IMG/VR virus record: IMGVR_UViG_2660238548_000027
Coordinates: 1-20,335 of that record
Length of the DNA: 20,335 nucleotides
Direction: 5' to 3' (one strand)
Origin: a virus
Lineage: Duplodnaviria > Heunggongvirae > Uroviricota > Caudoviricetes
Translations under genes and position numbers: made by a program
The notes under the pieces: generated by a model
What the model was told of the DNA's origin: nothing
Database searches by the model: none
What the model saw: the letters and a program-made list of their open reading frames with translations, nothing else
Shown here: positions 69-20,335 of the stretch, piece by piece
Position numbering within the stretch: position 1 is the stretch's first letter
Layout: the number at the start of each line of letters is the position of its first letter

Positions 69-170
69 TCATCCTGTTTACCTCTTTCTCAGGGAGTTTA
101 GTCTCCAGGATTCCCGGGGCGGTTCATTGCCGGTGGTGAGATTGGACCGTCGTTGTACGGTCGTATCGAC

Positions 171-2570: not shown

Positions 2571-3034
2571 TGATCGATGTTCAAATTATTCCCGCAACCG
2601 AAGAGCATCTTCAGATGATTTTGCCGGATGTTCGTCAGGCTGATATTGACGAACTGTATGCGGTATCACTGATGACTACCGAAGATGCGCTGCGTGTTGG
2701 TCTGCGTACTGCGACTATGGCCTGGTCAGGATTTGCGAACGGAGAACTGGTAACCATGTTTGGCGTATCTCCGGCGTCAATGATCGGTGGCAATGGTACG
2801 CCCTGGCTGGTCGGAACCAGCCGTATCGAAAAATATCAGAAGACATTTCTTCGCCACTGCCGCCCTGTATTGCAGCAGATGCTGGCAGTTTATCCGCGCC
2901 TGGAAAACTATGTCGACGAGCGAAACCATGTTGCCAAAGCATGGCTGCACTGGCTTGGATTCAGGCTTGAAGAAGCCGCGCCTTATGGTGCTCTTGGTCT
3001 TAATTTCCACAGATTTCACATGGAGAGAAAATAA
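2570..3034 (+). CDS. Small virion/assembly protein, 154 aa
   Basis: ORF coupled by start/stop overlap on both sides (ATGA at 2570, TAATG at 3032-3036). No TM segment. Confidence 0.55.
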   Translation: MIDVQIIPATEEHLQMILPDVRQADIDELYAVSLMTTEDALRVGLRTATMAWSGFANGELVTMFGVSPASMIGGNGTPWLVGTSRIEKYQKTFLRHCRPVLQQMLAVYPRLENYVDERNHVAKAWLHWLGFRLEEAAPYGALGLNFHRFHMERK

Positions 3035-3579
3035 TGTGCGATCCGGTTATTGCTGGTGGCGCAATGCTCGCCATGAGTGGCATTCAGGCATACACCCAGT
3101 ACCAACAGGGAAAGTATGCCTCGAAGGTTGCAGAAGCGAACGCAGATATAGCCACAGCTCAGGCAAATGATGCAATAAACAGAGGTAACGCTGAAGCTGA
3201 GCAACGGCGCAGAGAGACCCGACAGCGGCTTGGTACACAGGCGGCGACAATGGGGGCGACCGGCGCTGATTTATCTACAGGTAACGCGCTGGATATATTT
3301 GGCGACACTGCCCAGTTTGGCGCTCTTGATTCTCTGACGACGGTGAATAACGCGCAACGCGAGGCTTACGGTTATCAGGTTCAGGCTGCCAACTATAAAG
3401 CAGAAGCCAGTTCAGCCCGTAAACAGGGGAATGTGGGAGCAGCAACAACATTGCTCACTGCGCCTCTGAAGGCATACGGTGCGTACCAGATGTTTGGTGG
3501 GACGTGGAGTCCGTTTACTCAAAGCACTCCTGCGCCAATCGGGGCAGCAGCAGGAACCAGATTACCCGGAGGATTATAA
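3034..3579 (+). CDS. Internal virion (ejection) protein, 181 aa, T7 gp14-like by pattern
   Basis: SD GGAGAG upstream; N-terminus MC + hydrophobic stretch then Ala/Gln-rich coiled region; position directly before the large internal virion proteins. Confidence 0.55.
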   Translation: MCDPVIAGGAMLAMSGIQAYTQYQQGKYASKVAEANADIATAQANDAINRGNAEAEQRRRETRQRLGTQAATMGATGADLSTGNALDIFGDTAQFGALDSLTTVNNAQREAYGYQVQAANYKAEASSARKQGNVGAATTLLTAPLKAYGAYQMFGGTWSPFTQSTPAPIGAAAGTRLPGGL

Positions 3580-6287
3580 TGCCAGTCGTACCAACAGTAT
3601 CCGGACGCCAGGTGCAAAGTCGTGGTGTGCAAACCGGTGGTTTTCAGACCTTCGATGTTCCTCAAGCAGGTCAGGTGCTGGCGAATGTCGCAGATCAGTA
3701 TGCGGTGGCATATGGTGAAGCCAGGAAGAAAGCGAATGTTGCATTGTCTCAGGATGCCATCCTTCAGCTTAATCAGCGCAGCAATGAACGTCTTTATAAC
3801 CCTCAAACCGGTTTTTATGCACAACAAGGCAAAAATGCGATTGGTAAGGGGCAAGAGTACATATCTGGATTTGATCAGGATGTGGAAGAAATAGCTGCTT
3901 CATTGACTGATGAAGCAGCAAGAAATATGTTTTTGCAACAAGCCAGAACACAGAAAATTCAGTTCAGTACTGGAGTTCTCAGACATGAGATAGGGCAGAC
4001 AAATGCCTATGAAGATGAGCAATATCAGGCAACGAGAAAATTATGGATACAAAATGAAGCGGATGCCTGGAATGACCCGCAAACTGCCACTTTAGCCAGA
4101 AATTCCAGAATGGTAGCCATTGCTAGATATGGAGCTGCCAGGGGATGGTCACAAGAACGCATTCTGGAAGAAATAGAAAGTGATGATCGCCGTGCCACAG
4201 AAATGCGGGCGAAGAATTATGCCGCTGCCAATCCAGAAGGATGGCTAAATGGTCTGTTTCAGAAAAATGATTCTGGAGGCATGGACATGCGTGCCATACG
4301 CCTTGTTGAATCAGGTGATCGACATTTTAATCCTGATGGTAGTCTTCTTGAAGGACCGATAACATCTTCTGGAGAGAGAGCCCAGGGGAAATACCAGTTA
4401 ATGCCGGGCACAGGGAAAGAACTGGCGGCCAAGCGTGGCGTTAAATACAACCCTACGGACGAACAACAGCATGAAATGCTCGCCAGTGACTATGTAAATC
4501 AACTGTATGGTAAGTACGGCTCCGAAATATTGACCGGAGCAGCATATAACTGGGGGATGGGTAACGTGGATAAACTGATCGCCAAAGTCGGTGATCCACG
4601 TAAAGGTGAAATATCAGAAGAAGAATTTATCCGAAATCTTCCATCAGAAACACAAGGGTGGCTTTCCCGATATAGAAAAAATAAAACTGGAATGGATCCG
4701 CTGACTATTTATCAAATAGATAACCTTGCTAATAGTCAGATAGAAAAGCAAAGGAAGTTAATATTAGAACAGCTTGAGCCAGCTATTAATAACACCATGG
4801 CCCAGCTATATAACGGTGAGGTTCCAGATTATATACCGGCTCAGGAGACTATCATCAGGGGGTATGGAAAAAATGCAGATAAAATAATCAATCAACTGGA
4901 TATAGCGATTGATAACGCGAGAATATTCCAGGCAATTCAGTATTTACCTCCTTCTCAGCAGCAAGAAGAAATGCAGAAAGTGAAGCCTGAGGTTAACGAT
5001 CCTCACTATGCGTTAAAACTCGATGCTTACGGAAAATTGTCTGCATTGCTTCAGCGATCAAATGAAGCAATTCAGGCGCAACGTGATTCACGCAGATTCA
5101 ATGAGGCGCTGACAATAGGTGAAAAATTAGACCCAAGCAACAAATCAATGCAGAAAGCTGCTGATTACACAGAAATGGCGCAGAACTTTCGTATTAATGA
5201 TGCCTCCACTCATGATGGGGTTGTTCGGCTTGTGGCTCAGACTGGCATCATGCCTTCGCAGGTCATCACGCAGCTTTCAGCAGTATCCAGATCCAGCAAT
5301 CAGGAAGTGGTTAAAAATGCAGCGAATTTGTTTAGTCGGTTATATGAAACAGACAATGCATCTATTGGAAATATGCCGAAGGATATGCAGGGTTTTTATC
5401 TGACTGTTAAGCAACTAACTGATGCAGGGATGTCTTCAGATGCTGCTATTGTGGAAGCGCAGAGTAAGACATACAACCAGACAGATGCACTAAGGGCGCA
5501 GCTCTCATCTGTTCAGAGTACAAGAGAATACAAAAAAGAGCGTGACAGCGCAGCCAATTCTGCTGTCAGTAATATGGCTCACTGGCTTCGCTGGGATCCG
5601 TCTGCGGATGACCAGACGCCGGAAGCAGCGCTCTTTCGCAATGACTATCAGATGCTCTATGACGTTAACTATCGCCTTGCTGGTGGTAACGCTGACGTAG
5701 CGAAGCAAATGACCAACCAGCAGATAGCTCGCACCTGGAGTATCAGCGAGGTCAACGGGGAAGCACAGTTTATGAAATATGCACCGGAGGCGCTTTATCA
5801 ATATGGGCCGTCAGGCTGGATTGCAGCGCAATGGAAGGCTGAAAAAGAAAAAATCATGTATGGCGATGACTTGCATAAACTGTCTCCTTCATTTAACCGA
5901 CCTTCAACTGAGGCTGGTGCATTGGGACTGAATACGCCACGCTCACTGGTTGGAGGTGAGTTGATTCTTGTTCCTGATTTATCAACTCCGAGAGATAAGC
6001 TTTATTCAGTTGTGATCAGAACAAAAGATAAAGATGGTATTACGAGGGATGATTTATTTTATGACAAGCATGGAAGACAGATGCGCTGGGGGCCATCACT
6101 AGAAGATTGGGAACCTTATAAGAAAATGCAGCAGGAACGGGAGCAGCACGAGCAGGAAGAAATTATGCGTGGACAGGCTATACAAAACTTCAAAGACAAG
6201 CATCGTGCTCTGGATGAGCAGTATCAGCGCCTGCATAACGAACGTATGGACAAATTTAAAGATTACTTTTCGTGGGGATCTAAATAA
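3579..6287 (+). CDS. Internal virion protein with lytic transglycosylase (SLT) domain, 902 aa
   Basis: SD GGAGGA 7 nt upstream of ATG 3579 (track ORF begins at 3504 inside the previous gene; start reassigned). SLT motifs present: RLVESGDRHFNPD (catalytic Glu-Ser), GKYQLMPGTG, AAYNWGMGNV. Confidence 0.8.
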   Translation: MPVVPTVSGRQVQSRGVQTGGFQTFDVPQAGQVLANVADQYAVAYGEARKKANVALSQDAILQLNQRSNERLYNPQTGFYAQQGKNAIGKGQEYISGFDQDVEEIAASLTDEAARNMFLQQARTQKIQFSTGVLRHEIGQTNAYEDEQYQATRKLWIQNEADAWNDPQTATLARNSRMVAIARYGAARGWSQERILEEIESDDRRATEMRAKNYAAANPEGWLNGLFQKNDSGGMDMRAIRLVESGDRHFNPDGSLLEGPITSSGERAQGKYQLMPGTGKELAAKRGVKYNPTDEQQHEMLASDYVNQLYGKYGSEILTGAAYNWGMGNVDKLIAKVGDPRKGEISEEEFIRNLPSETQGWLSRYRKNKTGMDPLTIYQIDNLANSQIEKQRKLILEQLEPAINNTMAQLYNGEVPDYIPAQETIIRGYGKNADKIINQLDIAIDNARIFQAIQYLPPSQQQEEMQKVKPEVNDPHYALKLDAYGKLSALLQRSNEAIQAQRDSRRFNEALTIGEKLDPSNKSMQKAADYTEMAQNFRINDASTHDGVVRLVAQTGIMPSQVITQLSAVSRSSNQEVVKNAANLFSRLYETDNASIGNMPKDMQGFYLTVKQLTDAGMSSDAAIVEAQSKTYNQTDALRAQLSSVQSTREYKKERDSAANSAVSNMAHWLRWDPSADDQTPEAALFRNDYQMLYDVNYRLAGGNADVAKQMTNQQIARTWSISEVNGEAQFMKYAPEALYQYGPSGWIAAQWKAEKEKIMYGDDLHKLSPSFNRPSTEAGALGLNTPRSLVGGELILVPDLSTPRDKLYSVVIRTKDKDGITRDDLFYDKHGRQMRWGPSLEDWEPYKKMQQEREQHEQEEIMRGQAIQNFKDKHRALDEQYQRLHNERMDKFKDYFSWGSK

Positions 6288-9200
6288 TGCCGTTCTATCC
6301 TGTATCTGAATCAAACAATAACGGATTTATTTCTGCTGGTCTCGCCATTCCTGAACCTGATGAACAGAGTTTTGATGTGCATCCGCCAGAAGGTAAGAAC
6401 CCTGAGCCTCGCCCAAAAGAGCCTTCATTGCTTGCCGCAGCAATACGACAGAACAATATTCTGGCTGGTTTTTTCCGTCCTGCCAGACAGTTTGAACCGG
6501 TCGAAGGTTATAACCCATATGCTGATAAAAATGAGTTGCACGGCTATGAATACTGGGGGGCGAAATTTGCAGGTTCCCGCTCGCCAGAAGAAACAGCGTG
6601 GATTAAGCAGCAGATAGATGATGAAAATGAAGATCGGCGTTTTATCTCTGAAGCAGGCTTGGCTGGTGGAATAGCCAGTGCAACAGCGATGCTTTTTGAC
6701 CCGGTTACTGTTGCGTCAATGTTTATCCCTGGTGCTCAAGGAGGGGCACTGGCGCGTATTGGCTCACAGATTGCGATTGGTGCTGCCGGTACTGCATTAA
6801 GCGAGGTTGTACTGAATAATCAGCAAATAACACGCTCATGGGGTGAAAGTGCCGCTCACGTTGCAGCGGGTGCGATGATGAGCGGCGTGTTTGCCAGTGC
6901 TGGTGTTGCGCTTTCGCCATCCGTCCGGGCTGCAGCCACACGTGAGGTTGCTGATGCTCTTGATAATATGAGCATTACATCAGCGACTGACAGGGCTGCC
7001 GCTTCGCTTTCCGATGGTGGTAGTGTTGGTGCTATGAAAATTGATACAGCGACTCTGGATGATTTAACCCCTGTTTCTGGTGGGGTGGTTGGAAAGGCTG
7101 CATGGAAAGCAGGGAGCTATCTTACTCCTTTGACAAGGTTAATGGAGTCTCCGTCCAAGACGGTGCGAAAAACAACGCTGGAGTTAGCCGAAAATAATTT
7201 CACCCTTAAAGGAAATGAAAGGGGGATTGAAACACCGGTAGCTGTAGAAACCCGTACACGTGGATGGCAGCGTGAAGAAGCTGCTGTTGTTGTCGGAAAT
7301 AAACAGGCATACGCAAAGTATAAAGCTGATGGTGGTGACATGAGTTTTGATTCATTTCGTCAGCAGGTTGGGAATGCTATGCGAAGCGGTGATGTGCATG
7401 CTAATCCTGTTGTTCAGGAAACGGCGCAGGCGATGCGAACTGTATTAAATCGGGTGAAAGTTGAAATGCAAAAGCTTGGTTTATTGCCGCCAGATGAAGA
7501 ACTGAAAGCATTAGGCCAGGCAAGCTATTTCCCACGCATATATAAAGTTGGAAAAATAATCAGTGAACGCGATAAATTTCGACGTATTTTGGTTGACTGG
7601 TGGTCGAGAGGAAATAAAACACTGGATCCTGAGGATGCTGAAATTGCAGCGGATATCGTAATTAATAAAATTACTGGTGCTAAGGTTCCACAGGATTTTG
7701 TCAGCGTATTTTCTGTAAAAGCCGCAGGTAGTACGAAAGAAAGAACATTAAATGTTCCTGATAGTCTTATCAGGGATTATCTTGAAAGTGATGTGAATTA
7801 CGTGCTGCAACGTCATATCCGTGAAGCGGCAGCAGAAATTGAGTTGACGAGAACATTTGGCAAACGAACTATGACTGAGCGTCTGCAATTAATTGAGGAC
7901 GAATATGACAGTCTGTTACGGGAAGTGCCTGAAAAAATAAAGGCGAAATATGACGAAAGTGTGGCAAATCTGAAAGCACGTTATGAGAGCAATGGTGAAG
8001 TTGTTCCTCAGGGTAAACTCGATTCATTAATGCGAAAGTACGAAAAGGAATTACGGAAAGAACAGTCCAGACTTTCAAAATCAAGAGCAAATGATCTCAG
8101 AGACATAACAGCATTACGCGATCGTCTTGTTGGTACATATGGTATGCCTGATGATCCGTCTTCGTTTTTTGTTCGTGCTGGCGCTTTTCTGCGGGATGTG
8201 AACTTCACGACCAAACTCGGTGGAATGACAGTATCAGCTATTCCAGATCTGGCCAGAGGGGTTATGGTTAATGGTTTCCGTAACACCATGAAAGGCTATG
8301 CTTCTCAGATATCCCAATCACCGGCATTTAAGGCCAGCAAAGAAGAGATGTTGAAGATGGGGATTGGATTGGAAGCTGTACTACATTCACGTTCTCGTGC
8401 AATTGGTGATCTTGTTGACAGTTCTTCCAGGACAACAGCAGTCGAAGCAGGAATGGAGCGAATTACTGATGCCTTCGGCAAGCTGACACTCATGGATCGA
8501 TTTAATGACATAAACAAATCCATGAACGGAATGCTCACGTCAGACGGTATTTTGTCTGGTGCGTTTTCTGCACGTCGCATGGCAAAACTCGGTATCAACG
8601 ACAATATGGCTGCGCGTATTCGCAGTGAGTTCGAGAAACATGGTGAGGTAATTGATGGATGGCACATTGGTAACTTTGATAAATGGGACGATCAGTACGT
8701 TGCCGGAGTATTCCAGTCAGCGGTTCTGAAAGACGTTAATAACACTATCATCACCCCCGGTATTGGTGACACACCTTTATGGGCGAGTACTCCAATGGGG
8801 CGAACGATATTTCAGTTTAAATCATTCACAACGGCTTCATACAACCGTGCGCTACTTGGTGGGTTACAGGAAGGAACTGCGCAATTTTATTATGGCACTG
8901 CATTTCAGATTGCTCTTGGCTCACTGGTCTATGCGCTAAAAGAAGCATCGAAAGGGAAAAATGTTGACTGGTCACCAGAGAAGCTGGTGCTTGAGGGTAT
9001 AGATAGATCCGGTATTCTTGGGCCATTGATGGAATATAACAACATGGCTGAAAAGGCTACTGGTGGTGCTGTTGGGCTGGGGGCTTTATTTGGCACTGGC
9101 ACACAGTCTAGGTATGCCAGTCGTGGATTCGTAGGATCTCTATTCGGACCGTCATTTGGTCTTGCGGATAGCATCATTGATGTGACCGCAGGAGTGTTGA

Positions 9201-9310
9201 ATGGTGATGCCGGTGATCGTATTGTGCATAATGTCCGAACCCTGATACCCGGCAATAACCTGTTCTGGATTGCGCCACTAATAAACCAGGTGGATCCGGT
9301 GATGAAGTAA
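6287..9310 (+). CDS. Large internal virion/ejection protein, 1007 aa
   Basis: Start overlaps previous stop (TAATG at 6285-6289); Ala/Gly-rich hydrophobic segments near residues 120-210 consistent with a membrane-interacting ejection protein. Confidence 0.6.
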   Translation: MPFYPVSESNNNGFISAGLAIPEPDEQSFDVHPPEGKNPEPRPKEPSLLAAAIRQNNILAGFFRPARQFEPVEGYNPYADKNELHGYEYWGAKFAGSRSPEETAWIKQQIDDENEDRRFISEAGLAGGIASATAMLFDPVTVASMFIPGAQGGALARIGSQIAIGAAGTALSEVVLNNQQITRSWGESAAHVAAGAMMSGVFASAGVALSPSVRAAATREVADALDNMSITSATDRAAASLSDGGSVGAMKIDTATLDDLTPVSGGVVGKAAWKAGSYLTPLTRLMESPSKTVRKTTLELAENNFTLKGNERGIETPVAVETRTRGWQREEAAVVVGNKQAYAKYKADGGDMSFDSFRQQVGNAMRSGDVHANPVVQETAQAMRTVLNRVKVEMQKLGLLPPDEELKALGQASYFPRIYKVGKIISERDKFRRILVDWWSRGNKTLDPEDAEIAADIVINKITGAKVPQDFVSVFSVKAAGSTKERTLNVPDSLIRDYLESDVNYVLQRHIREAAAEIELTRTFGKRTMTERLQLIEDEYDSLLREVPEKIKAKYDESVANLKARYESNGEVVPQGKLDSLMRKYEKELRKEQSRLSKSRANDLRDITALRDRLVGTYGMPDDPSSFFVRAGAFLRDVNFTTKLGGMTVSAIPDLARGVMVNGFRNTMKGYASQISQSPAFKASKEEMLKMGIGLEAVLHSRSRAIGDLVDSSSRTTAVEAGMERITDAFGKLTLMDRFNDINKSMNGMLTSDGILSGAFSARRMAKLGINDNMAARIRSEFEKHGEVIDGWHIGNFDKWDDQYVAGVFQSAVLKDVNNTIITPGIGDTPLWASTPMGRTIFQFKSFTTASYNRALLGGLQEGTAQFYYGTAFQIALGSLVYALKEASKGKNVDWSPEKLVLEGIDRSGILGPLMEYNNMAEKATGGAVGLGALFGTGTQSRYASRGFVGSLFGPSFGLADSIIDVTAGVLNGDAGDRIVHNVRTLIPGNNLFWIAPLINQVDPVMK

Positions 9311-9625: not shown

Positions 9626-9973
9626 TTAGTGGCGGGAGAAATAGGACACACGGAAATAAGTTACCGTCATAATCAACCGTGTCGATATCGATACGGTTGA
9701 TGTTTCAATACTTTCGCGGATTTCAGGGCGGACTTTGTTAGGGCTGATGCTGTTCAACCAAGCTGCCAATTTTCGTAAAGCCATACAAATCATGGCTTGC
9801 ACCCCACCGGCAGAAGGTATGGTGATTTCCACCATACCCTTCGAGAAGCGTTGAGAAATCTTCTTATGTTGAGATTTCCAGTCTAGCCCCATTCCCTCAA
9901 CGATAGGTTTCATTGGGGTATATGGTTCGCCGTTGTGATTGACAACATAAAGCTCTGCGCCGTGGAATGGCAC
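9626..9973 (-). pseudogene. Probable remnant of an antirepressor-family gene (N-terminal DNA-binding-type domain only)
   Basis: Conserved-looking PFHGAELYVVNHNGEPY...IVEGMGLDW...GGVQAMICMALRKLAAWL, but no ATG (first start is GTG at 9973, frame open to 10033) and a low-complexity C-terminal tail, suggesting truncation. Confidence 0.4.
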
Positions 9974-10091: not shown

Positions 10092-10121
10092 TTGATTTTA
10101 ATATTTCTTAGCGCTTATCAT
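10092..10121 (+). promoter_or_regulatory. Candidate sigma70 promoter for leader RNA copy 1 (TTGATT-N18-TATCAT)
   Basis: -35 TTGATT 10092-10097, -10 TATCAT 10116-10121; copy 2 has TTGCAA-N17-TATATT at the equivalent position before the conserved TTACCTTTGCGG start. Confidence 0.35.
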
Positions 10122-10250
10122 TACCTTTGCGGTAAATTTACATCGCACTCCTCTTGTGCCATAGTAATCATGCACTGGCAAAATCCAGTGCCGGGATTGG
10201 TCTCCCGGATTACTAAGTGGCGCATACCACGCCAGACGTGGTTTTTTTTA
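10121..10250 (+). ncRNA. Structured leader/sRNA-like element, copy 1 (three-way junction plus terminator-like hairpin/T8)
   Basis: Outer stem TAGTAATC/GATTACTA (10162-10169/10208-10215) encloses hairpins CACTGG-CAAAAT-CCAGTG (10173-10190) and CCGGGA-TTGGTC-TCCCGG (10191-10208); then CCACG-CCAGA-CGTGG + T8 (10227-10249). Homologous copy on the minus strand at 13003-13135. Confidence 0.5.
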
Positions 10251-10407
10251 TGCGTATAGCACAGTCATGCCAGAATTATGGTGGGCTGAATGGGGGTCCG
10301 AAAGGACGCCGGTACCACTTAGGCCGGTAAGACCAACTCCGTTCAGTTCACCACCATCTGATTGGTCTCAGCGGTGGTGATGTAATTCGCTAAGTGGAGA
10401 CGCCATC
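10251..10407 (+). promoter_or_regulatory. Structured 5' leader of antirepressor 1 with co-varying pairing sites
   Basis: GAAA-tetraloop hairpin GTCC-GAAA-GGAC (10296-10307); AGACCAA (10330-10336) complementary to TTGGTCT (10362-10368) in the loop of hairpin CACCACC/GGTGGTG (10349-10379); SD GGAGA 10396-10400. Confidence 0.45.
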
Positions 10408-11064
10408 ATGAACGCTCAACTCATCCCCGTATTCAACGGCACTATATCTAACGAAACAGCCCTACTTTGTAATGCCCGCGATCTGCACGCTTTTTTAGGT
10501 GTTAAAAAGGTGTTTGCAGCATGGATTACAAATCGCATATCAGAATACGAATTCATTGAAAATCAAGACTATATTTTGCTTTCCAATTTGGGAAAGCAAA
10601 CATCTGGTAGAGGCGGCCACAACCGCAAAGAGTACCACCTCACCCTTGATACAGCCAAAGAGCTGGCGATGGTCGAGCGTAACGAAAAAGGTCGTCAGGT
10701 ACGACGCTACTTCATTGAATGCGAGAAACGTTTAAGACAACAAGAAACAAAAGTGGAGAAGGTCTTGTCAGGCTTCATGCCCGCCATTATGGAGGCGATC
10801 AAGCTGGAAGACAAAAAAGAATACAGCGCCCCACTGAAGCCCGGCTACCGCAGTTTGATTCACTCGCCGTCTGGTGTTCTCGGCCTGACGGAGAACTCAC
10901 TGCTGATGAATCTGCTGAACCAGTTACAGGAAGACGGGCACGACGTATCGGGCGCGGCGGCGGAGCTGACCACCATGTTCTGCTACATCGTCGGTGTGAG
11001 CAAATGCCTGCGTGATATCCAGACGCACGCGGAGTACATCAACGACAAGGCAGGGTTCTTCTGA
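10408..11064 (+). CDS. Antirepressor, AntA-type N-terminal domain plus shared C-terminal domain, 218 aa
   Basis: SD GGAGA 7 nt upstream; N-terminal pattern LIPVFNG...[10 protein letters not shown]...FAAWITNRI typical of AntA-type domains; C-terminal ~85 aa essentially identical to the C-terminus of the minus-strand gene at 12169-12858. Confidence 0.8.
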
Positions 11065-11087
11065 CGGGCGGCGGCACAGGGACGTGC
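10822..11087 (+). repeat. Inverted repeat arm A (3' coding region of antirepressor 1 plus ~23 nt past the stop)
   Basis: Reverse-complement match to 12146-12411; identical over the 84 nt compared (10981-11064 vs 12169-12252), with a few synonymous differences further 5'. Confidence 0.8.
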
Positions 11088-11113: not shown

Positions 11114-11138
11114 AGGCCGCTTTCGCGGCCTTGTTTTT
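11114..11138 (+). terminator. Intrinsic terminator after antirepressor 1
   Basis: AGGCCGC-TTTC-GCGGCCT hairpin followed by TGTTTTT. Confidence 0.6.
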
Positions 11139-11298
11139 AACGAATGCCACCGCCGCCCGGGCGGGAATCCGCAGAACGCCCACCGCAGCGGGAGCCGTCA
11201 GCAGCAGTGTCGCTGTCGTGCTGACAACGACCGGCAAAGGCCTGAGTTGAAGCTACCAGAGACAACAAAACGAACAGTGCAGCAAATGCTTTTTTCAT
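11137..11298 (-). CDS. Small secreted peptide, 53 aa (signal peptide + ~31-aa mature part with 2 Cys)
   Basis: Track ORF 11137..11370 trimmed to ATG 11298 (MKKAFAALFVLLSLVASTQAFA / GRCQHDSD...); the upstream part of the track ORF overlaps a promoter-like sequence. SD weak. Confidence 0.4.
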   Translation of the reverse strand: MKKAFAALFVLLSLVASTQAFAGRCQHDSDTAADGSRCGGRSADSRPGGGGIR

Positions 11299-11311
11299 TG
11301 TGAAATTTCCA

Positions 11312-11339
11312 TCTATAAGCCACCTCAATGTGGCGTCAA
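11312..11339 (-). promoter_or_regulatory. Candidate promoter for the small peptide gene (TTGACG-N16-TATAGA on minus strand)
   Basis: -35 = reverse complement of 11334-11339, -10 = reverse complement of 11312-11317. The -10 lacks the terminal T, so weak to moderate. Confidence 0.3.
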
Positions 11340-11370
11340 TGAGTGTAGCACTGACTTTTGTTTCGTCCAC

Positions 11371-11396: not shown

Positions 11397-12029
11397 TTAA
11401 TGCAGTTTATCTTTGCTTATAACCAGTAGTCTGTGGGTATGCACATCTTTATCACTGCCCCAACAGAAATCAGCCCACTGGCTATAGAAATCATCCCATG
11501 ATGTCATGAAGCTAAGAGGTCTATCTTCTTCAGAGCCATCTGAAACGTATACATTATATCCCGGGGTGTTTATAGCCCAAGAAATCATTCTTTCCCAGAA
11601 TCTTCTCCCATCGATTGTTTGTTGCTCATCAGATACAACGATCGCATATTGCTCTAGGAAGAACTGAAAAAAAATCTGAGGCAAACCATGAACAGCACGG
11701 TCATGAATAACATTAGGCGTACGCCATACCATGATCTGCGTACATGTTCTTTTGGCTTCGACGATATCTTCCCGAAAGATTAACTTAACCGCATACACCG
11801 TTTCTGGAGTATCGCTGGTAGTAATCATTCTGTAATGATCGCCATTACAAGATTTTACAAGGCGATAACCATAAGGTGTTGTGAATCCCGGAAGAACGAA
11901 ATCAACCACACCTTTCGCTAAGTAGCTTTCGGTGTGACTAGTGTTCTTCTCAGACATGTTCAGTTTTCTATCGAAATCTGCTTCTGGGATAATGTATGGC
12001 ATCGCTTTTCTTGTTGTATTTGTTCTCAT
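11397..12029 (-). CDS. Hypothetical cytoplasmic protein, 210 aa (cargo/moron gene of unknown function)
   Basis: Strong SD GGGAGGA 5 nt upstream of ATG (12029); own terminator; visibly lower GC than flanking phage genes; no TM or signal peptide; no motif recognised. Confidence 0.7.
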   Translation of the reverse strand: MRTNTTRKAMPYIIPEADFDRKLNMSEKNTSHTESYLAKGVVDFVLPGFTTPYGYRLVKSCNGDHYRMITTSDTPETVYAVKLIFREDIVEAKRTCTQIMVWRTPNVIHDRAVHGLPQIFFQFFLEQYAIVVSDEQQTIDGRRFWERMISWAINTPGYNVYVSDGSEEDRPLSFMTSWDDFYSQWADFCWGSDKDVHTHRLLVISKDKLH

Positions 12030-12145
12030 TTCGTCCTCCCATGTTTGGCTACAGGACGTGTTTTGAAGGGAAGATTAAAAATGCTTTCTTACCCTTGAGG
12101 TAATAGTACGCTATTCACCTGCAATCTGTACAGAATTATTTAAAG

Positions 12146-12411
12146 GCACATCCCTGTGCCACCGCCCGTCAGAAGAACCCTGCCTTGTCGTTGATGTACT
12201 CCGCGTGCGTCTGGATATCACGCAGGCATTTGCTCACACCGACGATGTAGCAGAACATGGTGGTCAGCTCCGCCGCCGCGCCCGATACGTCGTGCCCATC
12301 GTCCTGTAACTGGTTCAGCAGATTCATCAGCAGTGAGTTCTCCGTCAGGCCGAGAACACCAGACGGCGAGTGAATCAGGCTGCGGTAGCCTGGCTTCAGC
12401 GGGGCGCTGTA
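12146..12411 (-). repeat. Inverted repeat arm B (3' coding region of antirepressor 2)
   Basis: Reverse complement of 10822-11087 (see arm A). Confidence 0.8.
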
Positions 12412-12858
12412 GGTTTTGTTCTCTATCTTCATCGCCTTCATCACTGCTGACGCCGTGGCGTTGGCTACCTGGTCGGCAACCATCTTTATGCGTTCTTCCT
12501 GCGGGAGCGAGTTTTTAATGTAACTTCCGGTGCGGCGGATCTGAGGAAGAACCTCACCTGTAACCCATTTACGAAAGCGGTATGGGATAGTGCCTGGTGT
12601 CACCGCATCGCGGCAGCGGAGGATCAGTGTGTAGAGGCCTGACTCGTTGATAATATTGGTTTCGCCTTGACGGCCTAAGTTAAATTTAGCCCTTTCATCA
12701 TCATCAAGAGATTTTATTGACATAGTGGGGTTTGTCAGTTGAAGAGCTTTAATAACGTCTTTGGCAACAAACCAAGGATTTCCATCAATAACAATGGCTC
12801 GAATGGTTGCTTCTGATTCAAAATGAAAAACAGATGGGGTTACGTTAGCAGTCATAGT
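12169..12858 (-). CDS. Antirepressor, Bro-N-type N-terminal domain plus shared C-terminal domain, 229 aa
   Basis: SD AAGGTGA upstream of ATG 12858 (track ORF extends to 13008 through the leader; start reassigned to MTANV). Bro-N hallmarks GNPWFVAKDV and LDDDERAKFNLGRQGE; C-terminus matches gene 10408-11064. Confidence 0.8.
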   Translation of the reverse strand, partial: TMTANVTPSVFHFESEATIRAIVIDGNPWFVAKDVIKALQLTNPTMSIKSLDDDERAKFNLGRQGETNIINESGLYTLILRCRDAVTPGTIPYRFRKWVTGEVLPQIRRTGSYIKNSLPQEERIKMVADQVANATASAVMKAMKIENKTYSAPLKPGYRSLIHSPSGVLGLTENSLLMNLLNQLQDDGHDVSGAAAELTTMFCYIVGVSKCLRDIQTHAEYINDKAGFF

Positions 12859-13002
12859 GATCACCTTTGTAGTTAGGTTAATCACCACTACCGACGCCAA
12901 TCGGTTGGTGGTGAACTGTGCAGGGTTGGCGTAACCGGCTACAAAGGACCCGGCGCACCTTTCGGTGCCCCCACACAGCCCACCATAGAATAGGTGCGTT
13001 TT
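12859..13002 (-). promoter_or_regulatory. Structured 5' leader of antirepressor 2 (copy 2 of the co-varying leader)
   Basis: Minus-strand sense: GCACC-GAAA-GGTGC hairpin; ACGCCAA (plus 12918-12924) complementary to TTGGCGT (plus 12886-12892) inside a CACCAC/GTGGTG hairpin. Confidence 0.45.
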
Positions 13003-13135
13003 ACACATAAAAAAACCGCTTATGCGGCATATGTGCCTCTGTAGTAATCCGGGACGCCAATCCCGGCACTGGATTTTGCCAGTGCCCGATTACTATGGCA
13101 CAAGAGGAGTGCGATGTAAATTTACCGCAAAGGTA
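13003..13135 (-). ncRNA. Structured leader/sRNA-like element, copy 2
   Basis: Same three-way junction as copy 1, with hairpin B loop TTGGCG instead of TTGGTC; CCGC-ATAA-GCGG hairpin + T7; identical 5' 40-nt segment TTACCTTTGCGGTAAATTTACATCGCACTCCTCTTGTGCC. Confidence 0.5.
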
Positions 13136-13167
13136 AATATAAGCACTCCACTTGGTAATTGCAAACC

Positions 13168-13425
13168 TTATCTGGTTTGTTTTCGTAATTGTTCGGCACA
13201 ATAGTCGAGATGTGTTTGCAGATCCCGCATAGACATCTGTGAGCTGGTGACGTAGTTAATCAGTGCAGTCAGTTCGGCAAGTGGGCCATCGACATTAAAT
13301 CCATCCTTATCGAGATCCCGGAGTAATTTCATCAAGTGCGATCCCTCCACCAGTGACCTGACGCCTCCCGGCGTGTGAATCCTTTCGGTAAATCCGTCTT
13401 CCAGTGGATAGTGATACTGCTGCAT
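13168..13425 (-). CDS. Small stand-alone paralogue of the antirepressor C-terminal domain, 85 aa; probable SOS-induced antirepressor
   Basis: ATG 13425 (MQQYHYPL...) with SD GGAG; track start 13443 is TTG. About 45% identity by eye to the shared C-terminal domain (IHxPxGV...AELT...RDxQTH). LexA box just upstream. Confidence 0.7.
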   Translation of the reverse strand: MQQYHYPLEDGFTERIHTPGGVRSLVEGSHLMKLLRDLDKDGFNVDGPLAELTALINYVTSSQMSMRDLQTHLDYCAEQLRKQTR

Positions 13426-13444
13426 CTTATCTTCTCCATGCAAT

Positions 13445-13464
13445 AACTGTATAAATATACAGTA
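13445..13464. promoter_or_regulatory. LexA (SOS) box AACTGTATAAATATACAGTA overlapping a promoter
   Basis: Exact CTGT-N8-ACAG palindrome with AT-rich spacer, about 20 nt upstream of the minus-strand ATG at 13425; -35-like TTGATA immediately adjacent on the minus strand. Confidence 0.7.
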
Positions 13465-13620
13465 TCAAATAATTTGTTTGCTATCCAGCACGTTTTGCGA
13501 ATCACCTGAAAGGTAATATCTGTTCGTATTTATGGGTTATATATCCATATGTGGTTTTTCAGGTAATAGAATAACCGGATATGCGGCGCAACGGGTGCTG
13601 CGACTATCCGGAGATTTAAC

Positions 13621-15714
13621 ATGACGGTCTCAACCGAAGTTGACCACAACGAATACACCGGTAACGGTGTTACAACGACATTCCCTTATACCTTCAGGAT
13701 TTTCCAGAAATCTGATTTAGTAGTGCAGGTTGTTGACCTGAACGAGAACATCACAGAGCTGATTCTTGACACTGATTACATAGTTACTGGGGCTGGAGGA
13801 TACAATGGTGGCAATATAATTCTGTCGAAGGCATTGGTTAGCGGTTATCAGATTTCTATATCACGAGAGCTCCCGTTTACGCAGGAAACTGATTTGCGTA
13901 ATCAGGGGAAGTTCTTTGCAGAAGTGCATGAGGATGCTTTTGATAAGCTAACGATGCTGATCCAGCAGGTTCGAAGTTGGTTTAGCTTGGCGCTGCGTAA
14001 GCCGTCATTCGTGGCAAATTATTATGATGCGCTTAACAATTACATCAGAAACTTACGCGATCCTTCAACCCCCCAAGATGCAGCCACTAAAAATTATGTT
14101 GATACACAGCTCAGTTCTAACCTGGGGTGTACTTTGCGCGTTCAGGAGCAGATACCGCAACTTCCTGATGCTGCCTCCCGCGCAAACAAGATGCCTGCTT
14201 TCGATAACGATGGTAACCCTATTGTTGTGCTTCCTCCATCAGGGTCTGCGTCTGACGTATTGATCGAGCTAGCCAAGCCAACTGGATCTGACTTGGTTGG
14301 TTATGGGTCACAGACGGTTAAAGCAACCCTTGATAGCCTGAATAGCATGCGGGAGGAGCTTCTTGATAAAACAGGATTTAATGCGCTGGGGCGCTTCCTT
14401 AATCTTTCAGAGCTTCGCTCCTGTGTTCCGGAGGAGGCGGGGCAGATTGTATACGTAGCATCAGCAGCTAGCACTACACATGCTGAAAACCACCTTGGTG
14501 GCGGCTTTTTCGAGTCTGTTGATAACATTCAGGCGTGGGCTGATGATGGTGGAATTGTAATCAAGCCAGAAACTGGAACGATGGTATGGAGACGAATTAA
14601 TTTTACCACTTACGACATGCAATTTTGGGGGGTGAAACCTGACGGAGTCACAGATAACGCAACAGCTATAACTCTTGCAACTAACTTTGCTCGCTCAAAC
14701 AAATGCATTCTAGAGGCTCCTGCTGGAAACATAAATACATCAAAAACAATCCCAATTTATGACAATATGGGAATTAGAGGACAGGGAAAGGCTGAAGCGA
14801 CAGTTTTTTATAAAACAACAAATGACAAAATAGATCTCACAAAAAATGGAGAAGTAATTCTTCAGGTGGATGCATTATGTGCTTTTATACCAAAGCAATG
14901 GGATCTAACAGATAACTCAATGAGTTCATTTTGTGTTAACGGTAGAGTTGAAAACTGCATGTTTAGAAGGCTTGGCTTAACACAAGAAAATGTAGATTCT
15001 TATAGAAATTATTACGGACTGTTTTTAGGAAAATCAGCAGCACCAGTTATCAGACAGTCAATTTTTGAATGTGCTTATATCGGATGCTTCTCTTATGCGC
15101 CGTTCTCTGGCGTAATGGAAATGGTCGGTTTCCCACAATATCCAGGGAAAGGATATGCTGGAGTTTTGTTTGAAGATTTTAGGGATGGTCAAATAAAAGT
15201 AATTGGCACTTCTATGGATATGCGCCTTGTTCAAGTTAATGGTTATCAGTTGTCATTTAGAATGTCCGGGATGCAATATACTACCATGACCAATTGTACA
15301 GCTGAAAACTGCACGCCAATGGATGGGGAATCAACTTGCTACGCATTTGATTTTGTAAATCCGTATTGCATTGTCATGAATACTTGTGCAACAGAATTTG
15401 TTAAAGGGGGGCAATTGCGTGTTAGCGTTCAGGGAAACCCATCATTCCGCCCATCTATTATTGTCAATGGCTTTCTACCAATTGACCAACAAAGTCCAGT
15501 AGTGCAAACACCTATAATTGATATTGACAATGGTGGTGTTGTTGAAATGAGTGTCATATTGAATGGTGGTGATTGGGCAATAAATCCATCGGCTGTAAAT
15601 TTAACTTCTCCAAAAGCAAGTGGTAATGGGTTGAAGGTAAGATTGATCGGTGTAAATGGCTCTCCTTCTTCGGTGTGGAGTGCGTCTTCTGGTGCAGAAG
15701 TAAGGGAGTTCTAA
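13621..15714 (+). CDS. Tail fibre/tailspike, 697 aa (T7-type N-terminal adaptor region; C-terminal receptor-binding, possibly enzymatic, domain)
   Basis: SD GGAG upstream; N-terminal pattern YTGNGVTTTFPYTF...LILDTDYIV and DAATKNYVD motif resemble podovirus tail-fibre N-terminal domains; Gly/Asn-rich repetitive C-terminal part. Confidence 0.75.
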   Translation: MTVSTEVDHNEYTGNGVTTTFPYTFRIFQKSDLVVQVVDLNENITELILDTDYIVTGAGGYNGGNIILSKALVSGYQISISRELPFTQETDLRNQGKFFAEVHEDAFDKLTMLIQQVRSWFSLALRKPSFVANYYDALNNYIRNLRDPSTPQDAATKNYVDTQLSSNLGCTLRVQEQIPQLPDAASRANKMPAFDNDGNPIVVLPPSGSASDVLIELAKPTGSDLVGYGSQTVKATLDSLNSMREELLDKTGFNALGRFLNLSELRSCVPEEAGQIVYVASAASTTHAENHLGGGFFESVDNIQAWADDGGIVIKPETGTMVWRRINFTTYDMQFWGVKPDGVTDNATAITLATNFARSNKCILEAPAGNINTSKTIPIYDNMGIRGQGKAEATVFYKTTNDKIDLTKNGEVILQVDALCAFIPKQWDLTDNSMSSFCVNGRVENCMFRRLGLTQENVDSYRNYYGLFLGKSAAPVIRQSIFECAYIGCFSYAPFSGVMEMVGFPQYPGKGYAGVLFEDFRDGQIKVIGTSMDMRLVQVNGYQLSFRMSGMQYTTMTNCTAENCTPMDGESTCYAFDFVNPYCIVMNTCATEFVKGGQLRVSVQGNPSFRPSIIVNGFLPIDQQSPVVQTPIIDIDNGGVVEMSVILNGGDWAINPSAVNLTSPKASGNGLKVRLIGVNGSPSSVWSASSGAEVREF

Positions 15715-19264: not shown

Positions 19265-19804
19265 TTAATTAAACCAGCTGTCCGATTTGTTCTCTTCTGC
19301 TTTGCCCACGCTTTTCATCAGATCGCGACCGCCTTCAGTCATATTTCTGTTGGCGTCAGCTTCAGATTGCACCACATCGGTTTGCGCAGCTTTGTGCTTC
19401 AGTTCCTGATCGATAAATTCGTTTTCTCGCTTAACGCGGGCTTCTTCTTTTGCCAGCGCCAGTTTTTGTTTCTGAATCTCTAAGCTGCGTAGCTCATCTT
19501 CATAACTTTGATCGCGTTTTTTGTCCGCAGAGGCTTCGGCGTCCAGTTTATCCTGACGAGCTTTCTTATTTGCTGCTGCCGTTGCCGCTCTTTTGTTAGC
19601 GGCGGCCTGGGCATTTGCGCGACGTTGCTTCTCTTGCTGGATTTCCCTGTTGCGCTCCGCGACCCATTCGTCATGCTGCTTTTGCTCTTCATTTTTACCT
19701 TGCTGTTCCGCTTCTGCGACAGCCGAGAGTTGATCCTGCAATGATGAGGCGATAGCCGGATAGCTTAAGGAGGCCAAGATGGCGCAAAGAAAAACTTTCT
19801 TCAT
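19265..19804 (-). CDS. Secreted Ala/Lys/Glu-rich coiled-coil protein, 179 aa (host-like envelope protein)
   Basis: Signal peptide MKKVFLCAILASLSYPAIA then low-complexity helical sequence; SD AGGAGGAG upstream of ATG (19804). Confidence 0.7.
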   Translation of the reverse strand: MKKVFLCAILASLSYPAIASSLQDQLSAVAEAEQQGKNEEQKQHDEWVAERNREIQQEKQRRANAQAAANKRAATAAANKKARQDKLDAEASADKKRDQSYEDELRSLEIQKQKLALAKEEARVKRENEFIDQELKHKAAQTDVVQSEADANRNMTEGGRDLMKSVGKAEENKSDSWFN

Positions 19805-19819
19805 GACTCCTCCTGATTA

Positions 19820-20335
19820 TTAGCTCTTTTCAGGACATTTAGTATTTGGCTGAATACGCGTTTCGTTATACGTCGTGGTAATAACAACGGCTAAACCTGT
19901 CGTAAACTGGCACTTTTTACCCACCTGGGTGGAGGTATACACTTTGGTGCCTTCCTTATACGTTAAAGAAACACCTTCCACTAAGGTTTTATCATTCACC
20001 ATAGAACCCGCTGCCGCGCCTACAGCTCCGCCGCCAACTGCCCCTGCCGTCGTTCCGGAATTGCTGCCAGAACCGACGTTGTGGCCGATAACACCGCCAG
20101 CGACTGCGCCAATAAGCGCGCCGAAGGCTTGTGCGTTCCGTTTATTTTGGGAGTTGTCTACGGCAACTTTTGCGGGAAGAATGGAAATAATATTAACGGT
20201 TTTAGTTTCTTGTTTGGTATTCAGTTGATCGGTTTGATAAACATCGGCGGCATGATCGTCAGCATTTGACTGGCATCCTGCCAGAGTGAATGACGCTAAC
20301 ATTGCTACAGGCAGAAGACATTTTTTAAATTTCAT
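19820..20335 (-). CDS. Glycine-zipper outer-membrane lipoprotein, 171 aa
   Basis: Lipobox FTLAGC; Gly-zipper GALIGAVAGGVIGHNVGSG...GAVGGGAVGAAAG; start codon sits exactly at the window edge. Confidence 0.7.
   Translation of the reverse strand: MKFKKCLLPVAMLASFTLAGCQSNADDHAADVYQTDQLNTKQETKTVNIISILPAKVAVDNSQNKRNAQAFGALIGAVAGGVIGHNVGSGSNSGTTAGAVGGGAVGAAAGSMVNDKTLVEGVSLTYKEGTKVYTSTQVGKKCQFTTGLAVVITTTYNETRIQPNTKCPEKS

Follow-up and report, generated by a model that had tools for sequence, protein, structure and literature searches.

A putative LexA-controlled antirepressor of the SPC32H type, followed by an isrK/C4 cassette, in an Escherichia coli prophage related to phiV10 and epsilon15

An 85-aa gene in a phiV10/epsilon15-like prophage is very likely the orthologue of ant, the antirepressor gene of Salmonella phage SPC32H, and, in the same joint reading, would be controlled by LexA and drive SOS induction by antirepression, as ant does in SPC32H. 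The gene lies in a 20,335-bp stretch of DNA, all of which was analysed and which is called the window here. The mechanism is already known and, judged from the sequence comparisons below, the locus is a rediscovery of the SPC32H Ant system in an E. coli sister lineage. Beyond the SPC32H model, the comparisons point to a conserved downstream cassette which includes isrK- and C4-family RNAs, a large antirepressor gene and candidate operators for the phage repressor, Rep. An earlier note on this DNA had located a LexA box and the 85-aa gene, and reading the sequence confirmed both sets of coordinates exactly (Table 1).

The region shares 94–99% identity with Escherichia phage phiV10 and relatives of that phage, and ~76–78% with the Salmonella phages epsilon15, SPC32H and SPN1S and with Enterobacter phage Tyrion (phiV10 and these four phages all belong to the genus Uetakevirus). 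Since the phiV10-like genes run into the chromosomal genes yfgI and yfgH, the window is, on its gene order, the right-hand part of a phiV10/epsilon15-like prophage located at guaA/yfgI in E. coli. Among complete genomes the nearest one found, that of E. coli AH20E044, shares this layout and is 95.8% identical at the locus. Of 5,426 complete E. coli genomes, 529 carry the small gene with its box at 95% identity or more; all of the matches listed call the gene product a 'hypothetical protein'.

Table 1. Position of the genes, RNAs and candidate regulatory sites in the window
Feature	Position	Strand	Basis or description
Virion and ejection protein genes	153-9310		
Antirepressor-rich segment	9.6-13.5 kb		
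Cassette leader copy 1	10121..10358	+	Candidate Rep operator, promoter (10137-10165), isrK, C4
Candidate Rep operator	10121-10135		Abuts -35 of isrK copy-1 promoter
isrK copy 1	10172-10248	+	Rfam RF01394, 67.7 bits
C4 copy 1	10274-10358	+	Rfam RF01695, 61.2 bits
Large antirepressor, 218 aa, AntA + Ant-like C-terminal domain	10408..11064	+	Pfam AntA, E 4e-26
Candidate Rep operator	12089-12103		
Large antirepressor, 228 aa, Bro-N + Ant-like C-terminal domain	12169..12855	-	Pfam Bro-N, E 4e-20
C4-family antisense RNA copy 2	12904..12990	-	Rfam RF01695, 79.5 bits
isrK-family sRNA copy 2	13009..13085	-	Rfam RF01394, 76.8 bits
isrK copy-2 promoter, including operator	13092..13136	-	-35 TTTACA 13120-13115, 17-bp spacer, TG-n-CATAGT with -10 at 13097-13092
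Candidate Rep operator TTACCTTTGCGGTAA	13136-13122		Abuts -35 of isrK copy-2 promoter
ant, small antirepressor (putative)	13168..13425	-	PDB 5D50_E, SPC32H_020, PHROG 450, synteny
Shine-Dalgarno GGAG	13434..13437	-	8 nt upstream of ant ATG, kept in homologues
LexA (SOS) box (putative)	13445..13464	.	Consensus match, half-site conservation, SPC32N change
Inferred ant promoter	13459..13487	-	Sequence and conserved geometry
Candidate Rep operator	13502..13516	.	TCACC-N5-GGTAA, between ant and the tailspike gene
Tailspike gene	13621-15714		Divergent from ant
O-acetyltransferase gene, lysis genes, then yfgI and yfgH (E. coli chromosomal)	after tailspike gene, to window end		

The reading frame of the small gene comprises 85 codons, from an ATG at 13425 to a TAA at 13170–13168. 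A TTG start at 13443, which would give 91 aa, was rejected: the homologues start at the ATG, and it is the ATG that GGAG precedes. A phmmer search of the Protein Data Bank with the protein returned a single match, chain E of 5D50 ('Anti-repressor protein'; E 1.4e-46), which covers residues 2–84 of 85. Entry 5D50 is the complex of Rep and Ant from Salmonella phage SPC32H. With SPC32H_020, which is annotated 'ant', the window protein shares 86% identity; it is 82% identical to epsilon15 gp19 and 99% identical to phiV10p24. Its PHROG matches are confined to families 450, 15539 and 1760, the first of which ('unknown function') is matched with an E value of 7e-48, and a Pfam search of the protein found no curated family at E up to 0.01, only a sub-threshold match to DUF724. 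In the GenBank record, SPC32H_020 is a minus-strand gene flanked by the tailspike gene and by a gene for a small membrane protein, and the window gene occupies this same position. Like the Ant genes of Uetakevirus, the window gene stands alone outside the immunity region and is divergent from the tailspike gene, and every feature of an SPC32H-type Ant that the sequence of the window can test was found at this locus.

The putative LexA box upstream of this gene has the sequence AACTGTATAAATATACAGTA, read in its context as catgcaatAACTGTATAAATATACAGTAtcaaa. Its 16-bp core, CTGT-N8-ACAG, is CTGTATAAATATACAG (13447–13462) and has a spacer composed entirely of A and T, while the 20-mer agrees with the E. 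coli SOS-box consensus, TACTGTATATATATACAGTA, at 18 of 20 positions (two mismatches). The box had been described as perfect, which is true of the core with its A/T spacer and not of the 20-mer. The core pattern CTGT-N8-ACAG has a single occurrence in the 20,335 bp, against a mean of 0.23 in shuffled sequence, and a match to the consensus with three or fewer mismatches appeared in none of 100 dinucleotide-preserving shuffles used as the control. The box is 22 bp from the ATG of ant and 157 bp from the divergent ATG of the tailspike gene.

Conservation was assessed in seven phages (the window, phiV10, SPC32H, epsilon15, Tyrion, BUCT554 and ZX5) and in nine further Ant loci obtained by a scan at one genome per bacterial species. 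When the intergenic regions between ant and the tailspike gene of the first six phages are aligned, CTGT and ACAG are invariant and the 8-bp spacer takes five forms; ZX5 contributes a sixth. The SPC32H box, CTGTATAAACATACAG, is equally far from its ATG and has the spacer ATAAACAT, whereas that of the window is ATAAATAT. Among the nine species-level loci the box is present at the equivalent position in eight, again with a varying spacer: five carry a perfect CTGT-N8-ACAG (two species of Citrobacter, Candidatus Erwinia dacicola, Pseudocitrobacter and Scandinavium) and three carry ATGT-N8-ACAG (Superficieibacter, Kluyvera and Klebsiella). No box was found in the remaining locus, that of Morganella, whose homologue is at 35% identity. 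Because the half-sites are invariant while the spacer varies, the alignments indicate that the box is a selected site and not a product of chance. Direct sequence comparison also places a G-to-T change within a half-site of the box in SPC32N (CTTTATAAACATACAG), the named variant of SPC32H, relative to SPC32H itself.

The palindrome might nevertheless be fortuitous, or belong to something else such as the tailspike gene, with ant being expressed constitutively or under the phage repressor only. The box does lie in an intergenic region that the two genes share, and a candidate Rep operator is found 40 bp further upstream. We consider this explanation extremely improbable given the shuffling result, the drift of the spacer across genera between fixed half-sites, the 22-bp distance to the ant ATG with overlap of a conserved ant -10 element, and the fact that SPC32N differs from SPC32H in exactly this box. 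A role for the box in controlling the tailspike gene was rejected because of its distance from that gene and its overlap with the ant -10.

The ant promoter looks like one of the extended -10 type overlapped by the box. It is composed of a -35 TGGATA (13487–13482), a 17-bp spacer, TG (13467–13466) and a -10 TACTGT (13464–13459), and the -10 hexamer overlaps the upstream LexA half-site by four bases. The same geometry recurs in all eight box-bearing species-level loci as TGGA(T/A)N, exactly 17 bp of otherwise unrelated sequence ending in TGn, and TACTGT or TATATG. The proposal that the LexA box lies on the promoter of the small antirepressor gene is therefore upheld at the sequence level by its overlap with the conserved TGn-TACTGT. 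Transcription is predicted to start near 13452, in which case LexA would cover about -12 to +8. A consensus promoter scan of the window did not call this promoter, because its -10 hexamer matches the consensus at only three of six positions. Another arrangement, TTGATA-17-TATTGC with the box filling the spacer, was rejected: its start would fall within the Shine-Dalgarno sequence, and its hexamers lack conservation.

A tblastn search of the 20,335-bp window for a rep homologue returned noise only, as is expected because rep of phiV10 and SPC32H sits in the early region; in the prophage layout it is ~27 kb from ant. Since the window is without rep, the partner repressor was judged from relatives at ~95% DNA identity. 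In phiV10 and in the AH20E044 prophage the repressor has 194 aa and matches chain A of 5D50 ('Repressor') over its full length (E 3.5e-42), and a Pfam search of this protein identified HTH_3 domains only (two HTH) and no Peptidase_S24. The phiV10-type and SPC32H repressors are 42–43% identical, far below the 86% of the corresponding Ant proteins, and recognition of Rep by Ant in the phiV10 lineage is for this reason an assumption.

The palindrome TTACC-N5-GGTAA is a candidate for the operator to which Rep would bind. Allowing up to one mismatch, it occurs four times in the window compared with 0.33 expected, and the copy between ant and the tailspike gene has its centre ~57 bp upstream of where ant transcription is predicted to start. 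In every relative examined a perfect TTACC-N5-GGTAA occupies the equivalent place upstream of ant, and in the GenBank record of epsilon15 the homologous site is annotated as 'repressor' binding. Per 16 kb of early region, phiV10, SPC32H and the AH20E044 prophage contain 9–13 copies against ~0.3 expected; these include sites in the rep-cro intergenic region and are often paired, 62 bp apart. An alignment of the ant-isrK spacer from eight genera has the same character as that of the LexA box, with invariant operator half-sites and a variable 5-bp spacer. From this distribution we infer that Rep uses the palindrome as its operator, in which case the phage repressor would hold the large antirepressor cassettes and LexA the small Ant.

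The following sequence of events is thus proposed. In an undamaged lysogen, host LexA bound at the box would keep ant silent, because the box is proposed to cover both the -10 element and the start site. DNA damage would activate RecA and lead to LexA self-cleavage and transcription of ant. Ant would then bind the C-terminal domain of Rep, a two-HTH repressor which appears to lack a self-cleaving peptidase domain, and this would break the DNA-binding Rep tetramer and release the lytic promoters. That LexA binds the box, that Ant binds Rep and that induction is affected as a result would be carried over to this prophage from the work on SPC32H. The suggestion that induction proceeds by antirepression rather than by repressor cleavage accordingly finds its support in the 86% identity and synteny of the probable SPC32H orthologue.

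LexA-controlled antirepression by SPC32H Ant was reportedly described by Kim and Ryu in 2013 (J Virol 87:11775), and the crystal structure of the Rep-Ant complex (5D50) is said to come from Kim et al. in 2016 (PNAS 113:E2480). One review states that SPC32H Ant is produced after LexA self-cleavage and inhibits the phage repressor by protein-protein interaction (PMC7380047); another describes an Ant tetramer that binds two Rep dimers and so breaks the Rep tetramer (PMC9638917), and a further article a Rep C-terminal domain involved in both tetramerisation and Ant binding (PMC9986798). The window locus shares with SPC32H the protein family and the genus, the length of Ant (85 aa here, 86 in SPC32H), the position and orientation of its gene, the distance from box to ATG, the promoter geometry and the TTACC-N5-GGTAA upstream, as well as, on the evidence of its closest relatives, a two-HTH partner repressor without an S24 domain. 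It differs in its E. coli host and location at guaA/yfgI, and in the lower identity of the phiV10-lineage Rep noted above. In addition, ant is followed here by an isrK/C4/Bro-N cassette on the same strand and there is a second, inverted cassette; SPC32H and epsilon15 have neither. The close E. coli relative vB_EcoP_ZX5 retains an intact box, and its lysogen was induced by mitomycin C to 10^9 PFU; in that study the large Bro-N protein alone was tested as "the" antirepressor (PMC9782041).

Other systems offer a more distant precedent. Coliphage 186 Tum and the Gifsy antirepressors had been cited in the earlier note as models; they do share the regulatory logic, but the closest precedent is SPC32H Ant. 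Tum, a study of which is reportedly due to Shearwin (1998), carries a DinI-like C-terminal region. The 85-aa protein has no DinI-like Pfam match (E up to 0.01), and its membership of the Tum family was rejected. According to a portion of Lemire 2011 (PMC3121763), GfoA and GfhA of Gifsy-1 and Gifsy-3 are LexA-controlled antirepressors which bind the repressor and remove it from DNA; they were compared with the small Ant by regulatory logic only. In all these systems the repressor is not cleaved and a small LexA-controlled antirepressor gene lies outside the immunity region, although 186 is a myovirus and the Gifsy phages are lambdoid siphoviruses whereas the prophage described here is a podovirus.

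Induction may have other routes besides the small Ant, because the two large antirepressors have the same C-terminal fold. Their last ~80 residues are nearly identical to one another, and these C-terminal ends are encoded within an inverted repeat of 279 bp with 95% complementarity. Across those residues the small Ant is 43% identical to the AntA-type protein (E 6e-17) and 41% identical to the Bro-N protein (E 5e-16). Residues 3–79 of 5D50_E are matched by residues 137–213 of the former (E 4.6e-14) and 147–223 of the latter (E 1.9e-13), and the three window proteins all match PHROG 450. By these comparisons the small Ant is the C-terminal domain of the large proteins in stand-alone form, and the paralogy that had been claimed for it is borne out.

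This identity extends across the whole domain and Ant of SPC32H, in the part of PMC9638917 cited above, is a tetramer, so that the fold is one that oligomerises. It could therefore be imagined that the main targets of the small protein are the large antirepressors, with which it would form mixed oligomers with a dominant-negative or an activating effect. We judge this to be very unlikely. The SPC32H orthologue acts on Rep in a phage with no large antirepressor at the locus, the ~40% identity to the large proteins is far below the 86% identity to SPC32H Ant, and nothing in the data points to hetero-oligomers. Direct action of the small Ant on Rep is the reading retained here.

Each large antirepressor gene has an isrK/C4 pair directly upstream, and both pairs score above the Rfam gathering scores (50 for isrK and 45 for C4). 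What the earlier note had called an RNA leader is indeed a repeated leader, and its identity can now be given as an isrK and C4 cassette with its own promoter, candidate operator and terminator. In copy 2 the promoter hexamers are invariant in eight genera and isrK begins 83 nt past the ant stop codon. Its 3' hairpin and U-run (13028–13009) constitute an intrinsic terminator, by terminator scan and folding, located before C4 and the Bro-N gene. Between the ant stop codon and isrK, no terminator was called in the scan of the window and none is conserved in the alignment of relatives; ant transcripts therefore probably enter isrK. A window-specific hairpin (GGAGUGC...GCACUCC) followed by UCUUGU might stop some ant transcripts. 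Read-through from the ant promoter into the leader and on into the Bro-N gene had been predicted; it is plausible as far as isrK and unproven for Bro-N, with the isrK terminator standing between the two.

The order ant-isrK-C4 on one strand is found in phiV10, ZX5, Tyrion and one Klebsiella phage and in seven of the nine species-level loci, five of them with the identical 83-nt spacing. The cassette was not found at this locus in SPC32H, epsilon15 or BUCT554. In Gifsy-1, part of the isrK transcripts pass the IsrK terminator and the short IsrK activates in trans the translation of the downstream antirepressor-like anrP (PMC4825925). By analogy, the ant transcript could supply IsrK or pass its terminator and so unlock translation of the Bro-N antirepressor. 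SOS would then free two or three proteins with one Rep-binding fold in a feed-forward loop in which the Bro-N promoter is held by Rep. Such a coupled cascade would be in keeping with the conserved gene order in other genera, the lack of a called or conserved terminator between ant and isrK, the candidate Rep operators that adjoin both isrK promoters and the Ant-like domain of the large proteins. It seems to us unlikely all the same: a well-conserved promoter serves the cassette itself, an intrinsic terminator precedes C4 and Bro-N, the window-specific hairpin might end some ant transcripts, and adjacency could reflect the plain inheritance of a module. Moreover, since SPC32H and epsilon15 are without the cassette and the small Ant is the reported switch of SPC32H, coupling of ant to the cassette would be dispensable.

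The 83-nt distance from ant to an isrK/C4 cassette with a large antirepressor recurs in most Enterobacteriaceae relatives, the Salmonella model phages excepted. The separate observations could also be assembled into one integrated circuit, in which ant transcripts would bring IsrK or read-through, Ant would clear Rep from the isrK promoter, and the second and third antirepressors would thereby be freed. We hold this to be doubtful. Were it true, the additional antirepressors, with their diverged Rep-binding domain, could lock induction in place or extend it to heteroimmune prophages by cross-induction.

Known counterparts of the downstream cassette, as distinct from the small ant gene, are the immI region of P1/P7 (c4-icd-ant) and the isrK-orf45-anrP region of Gifsy-1, in which isrK/C4 elements likewise precede a large antirepressor and the sRNA has its own, partly read-through terminator. 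Control of the cassette antirepressor by the phage rather than by LexA, as the candidate operators suggest, would resemble that of Fels-1 FsoA, an antirepressor which a section of PMC3121763 places under phage repressor control. Unlike the P1/P7 and Gifsy-1 loci, the cassette described here is directly downstream of a gene that appears to be LexA-controlled and on the same strand, is present in two inverted copies, and encodes antirepressors that end in the SPC32H-Ant fold.

The value of these observations is one of annotation, as the small Ant is unannotated in these prophages and PHROG 450 is without an assigned function. Its recognition would explain the SOS inducibility of these serotype-converting E. 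coli prophages. The ant-isrK-C4-antirepressor order and the genus-wide TTACC-N5-GGTAA palindrome provide modest leads on how several antirepressors of the same fold may be coordinated.

Among 5,426 complete E. coli genomes, 529 carry ant, the gene for the small antirepressor, together with its LexA box (13168-13520) at an identity of at least 95%, and in all of the E. coli genome matches listed it is labelled 'hypothetical protein'. The corresponding family, PHROG 450, is also without annotation despite the existence of a crystal structure.

Ant (13168-13425) of Salmonella phage SPC32H and of the phiV10 lineage share 86% identity. The partner repressors, Rep, compared from three early regions (L008, 11740-12336; L009, 9088-9672; L010, 9272-9856), are only 42-43% identical between the two lineages, with values of 54% over residues 1-70, 31% in the middle part and 44% at the C-terminus. 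At the level of protein sequence, divergence between the lineages is asymmetric: Ant is conserved and Rep much less so. Despite this divergence of Rep, the half-sites of a candidate operator are identical in both lineages.

This candidate is the palindrome TTACC-N5-GGTAA, which occurs four times in the window (one mismatch at most) against 0.33 expected. The three early regions, which are those of phiV10, SPC32H and the E. coli AH20E044 prophage, carry 9-13 copies per 16 kb, including in the rep-cro intergenic region, and these are frequently paired at a distance of 62 bp. In the window, a copy adjoins the -35 element of each isrK promoter and another lies immediately upstream of the ant promoter. 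The palindrome is probably the Rep operator.

The isrK and C4 RNA leader is present in two mutually inverted copies, each preceding one of the large antirepressor genes. The order ant-isrK-C4, with a constant 83-nt gap, is seen again in five other genera. The Salmonella phages SPC32H and epsilon15 are without the cassette.

Features of the antirepressor-rich segment
Feature	Position	Strand	Remarks
TTACC-N5-GGTAA	10121-10135
TTACC-N5-GGTAA	12089-12103		upstream of both the 77-aa and 210-aa genes
TTACC-N5-GGTAA	13122-13136
TTACC-N5-GGTAA	13502-13516
isrK	10172-10248	plus
C4	10274-10358	plus
isrK	13009-13085	minus
C4	12904-12990	minus
115-aa ORF	9626-9973	minus	only P22_AR_N antirepressor N-terminal domain (E 7e-32)
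Inverted repeat, arm 1	10809-11087
Inverted repeat, arm 2	12146-12424
77-aa gene	11137-11370	minus	phrog_3117; possible signal or membrane segment
210-aa gene	11397-12029	minus	phrog_1349; no Pfam match

The Ant-like C-terminal domains of the AntA-type and Bro-N-type antirepressors, together with their 3' flanks, are included in a 279-bp inverted repeat (95% complementary), which suggests either recent gene conversion or a segment able to invert or recombine. Between its arms lie 1,058 bp with two genes of unknown function, the 77-aa and 210-aa genes, which are positioned between the two antirepressor cassettes. The 115-aa ORF is what remains of a third type of large antirepressor in this hot spot; the annotation of E. 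coli AH20E044 gives its counterpart as a truncated pseudogene.

On the minus strand, the Bro-N frame remains open for 51 codons 5' of the point where translation likely begins (MTANV at 12855), spanning the whole C4 element and reaching an ATG at 13008, directly past the isrK terminator. In the close relative vB_EcoP_ZX5 the stretch equivalent to 12855-13008 is annotated as a distinct small 'ash family protein'; in the window this leader peptide frame appears to be joined in-frame to the Bro-N antirepressor.

The final kilobase (19265-20335) is host chromosome, carrying yfgI (DUF5384) and yfgH (glycine-zipper lipoprotein), which places the right end of the prophage between about 19046 and 19264. 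Both host proteins nonetheless have full-length PHROGs families, of which one bears the label 'DNA methyltransferase'; these probably derive from over-extended prophage records.

Upstream of the tailspike gene (13540-13575), the blocks CATAT..GGTT and GGTAATAGAAT, the latter including a single GGTAA half-site, are invariant in all genera and may belong to the tailspike or a late promoter. At the ant loci of Superficieibacter, Kluyvera and Klebsiella (L015, L018, L019 and L006), ATGT takes the place of CTGT in the upstream LexA half-site. This change also converts the overlapping predicted -10 hexamer from TACTGT to the stronger TATATG, and promoter strength may here be traded off against affinity for LexA.
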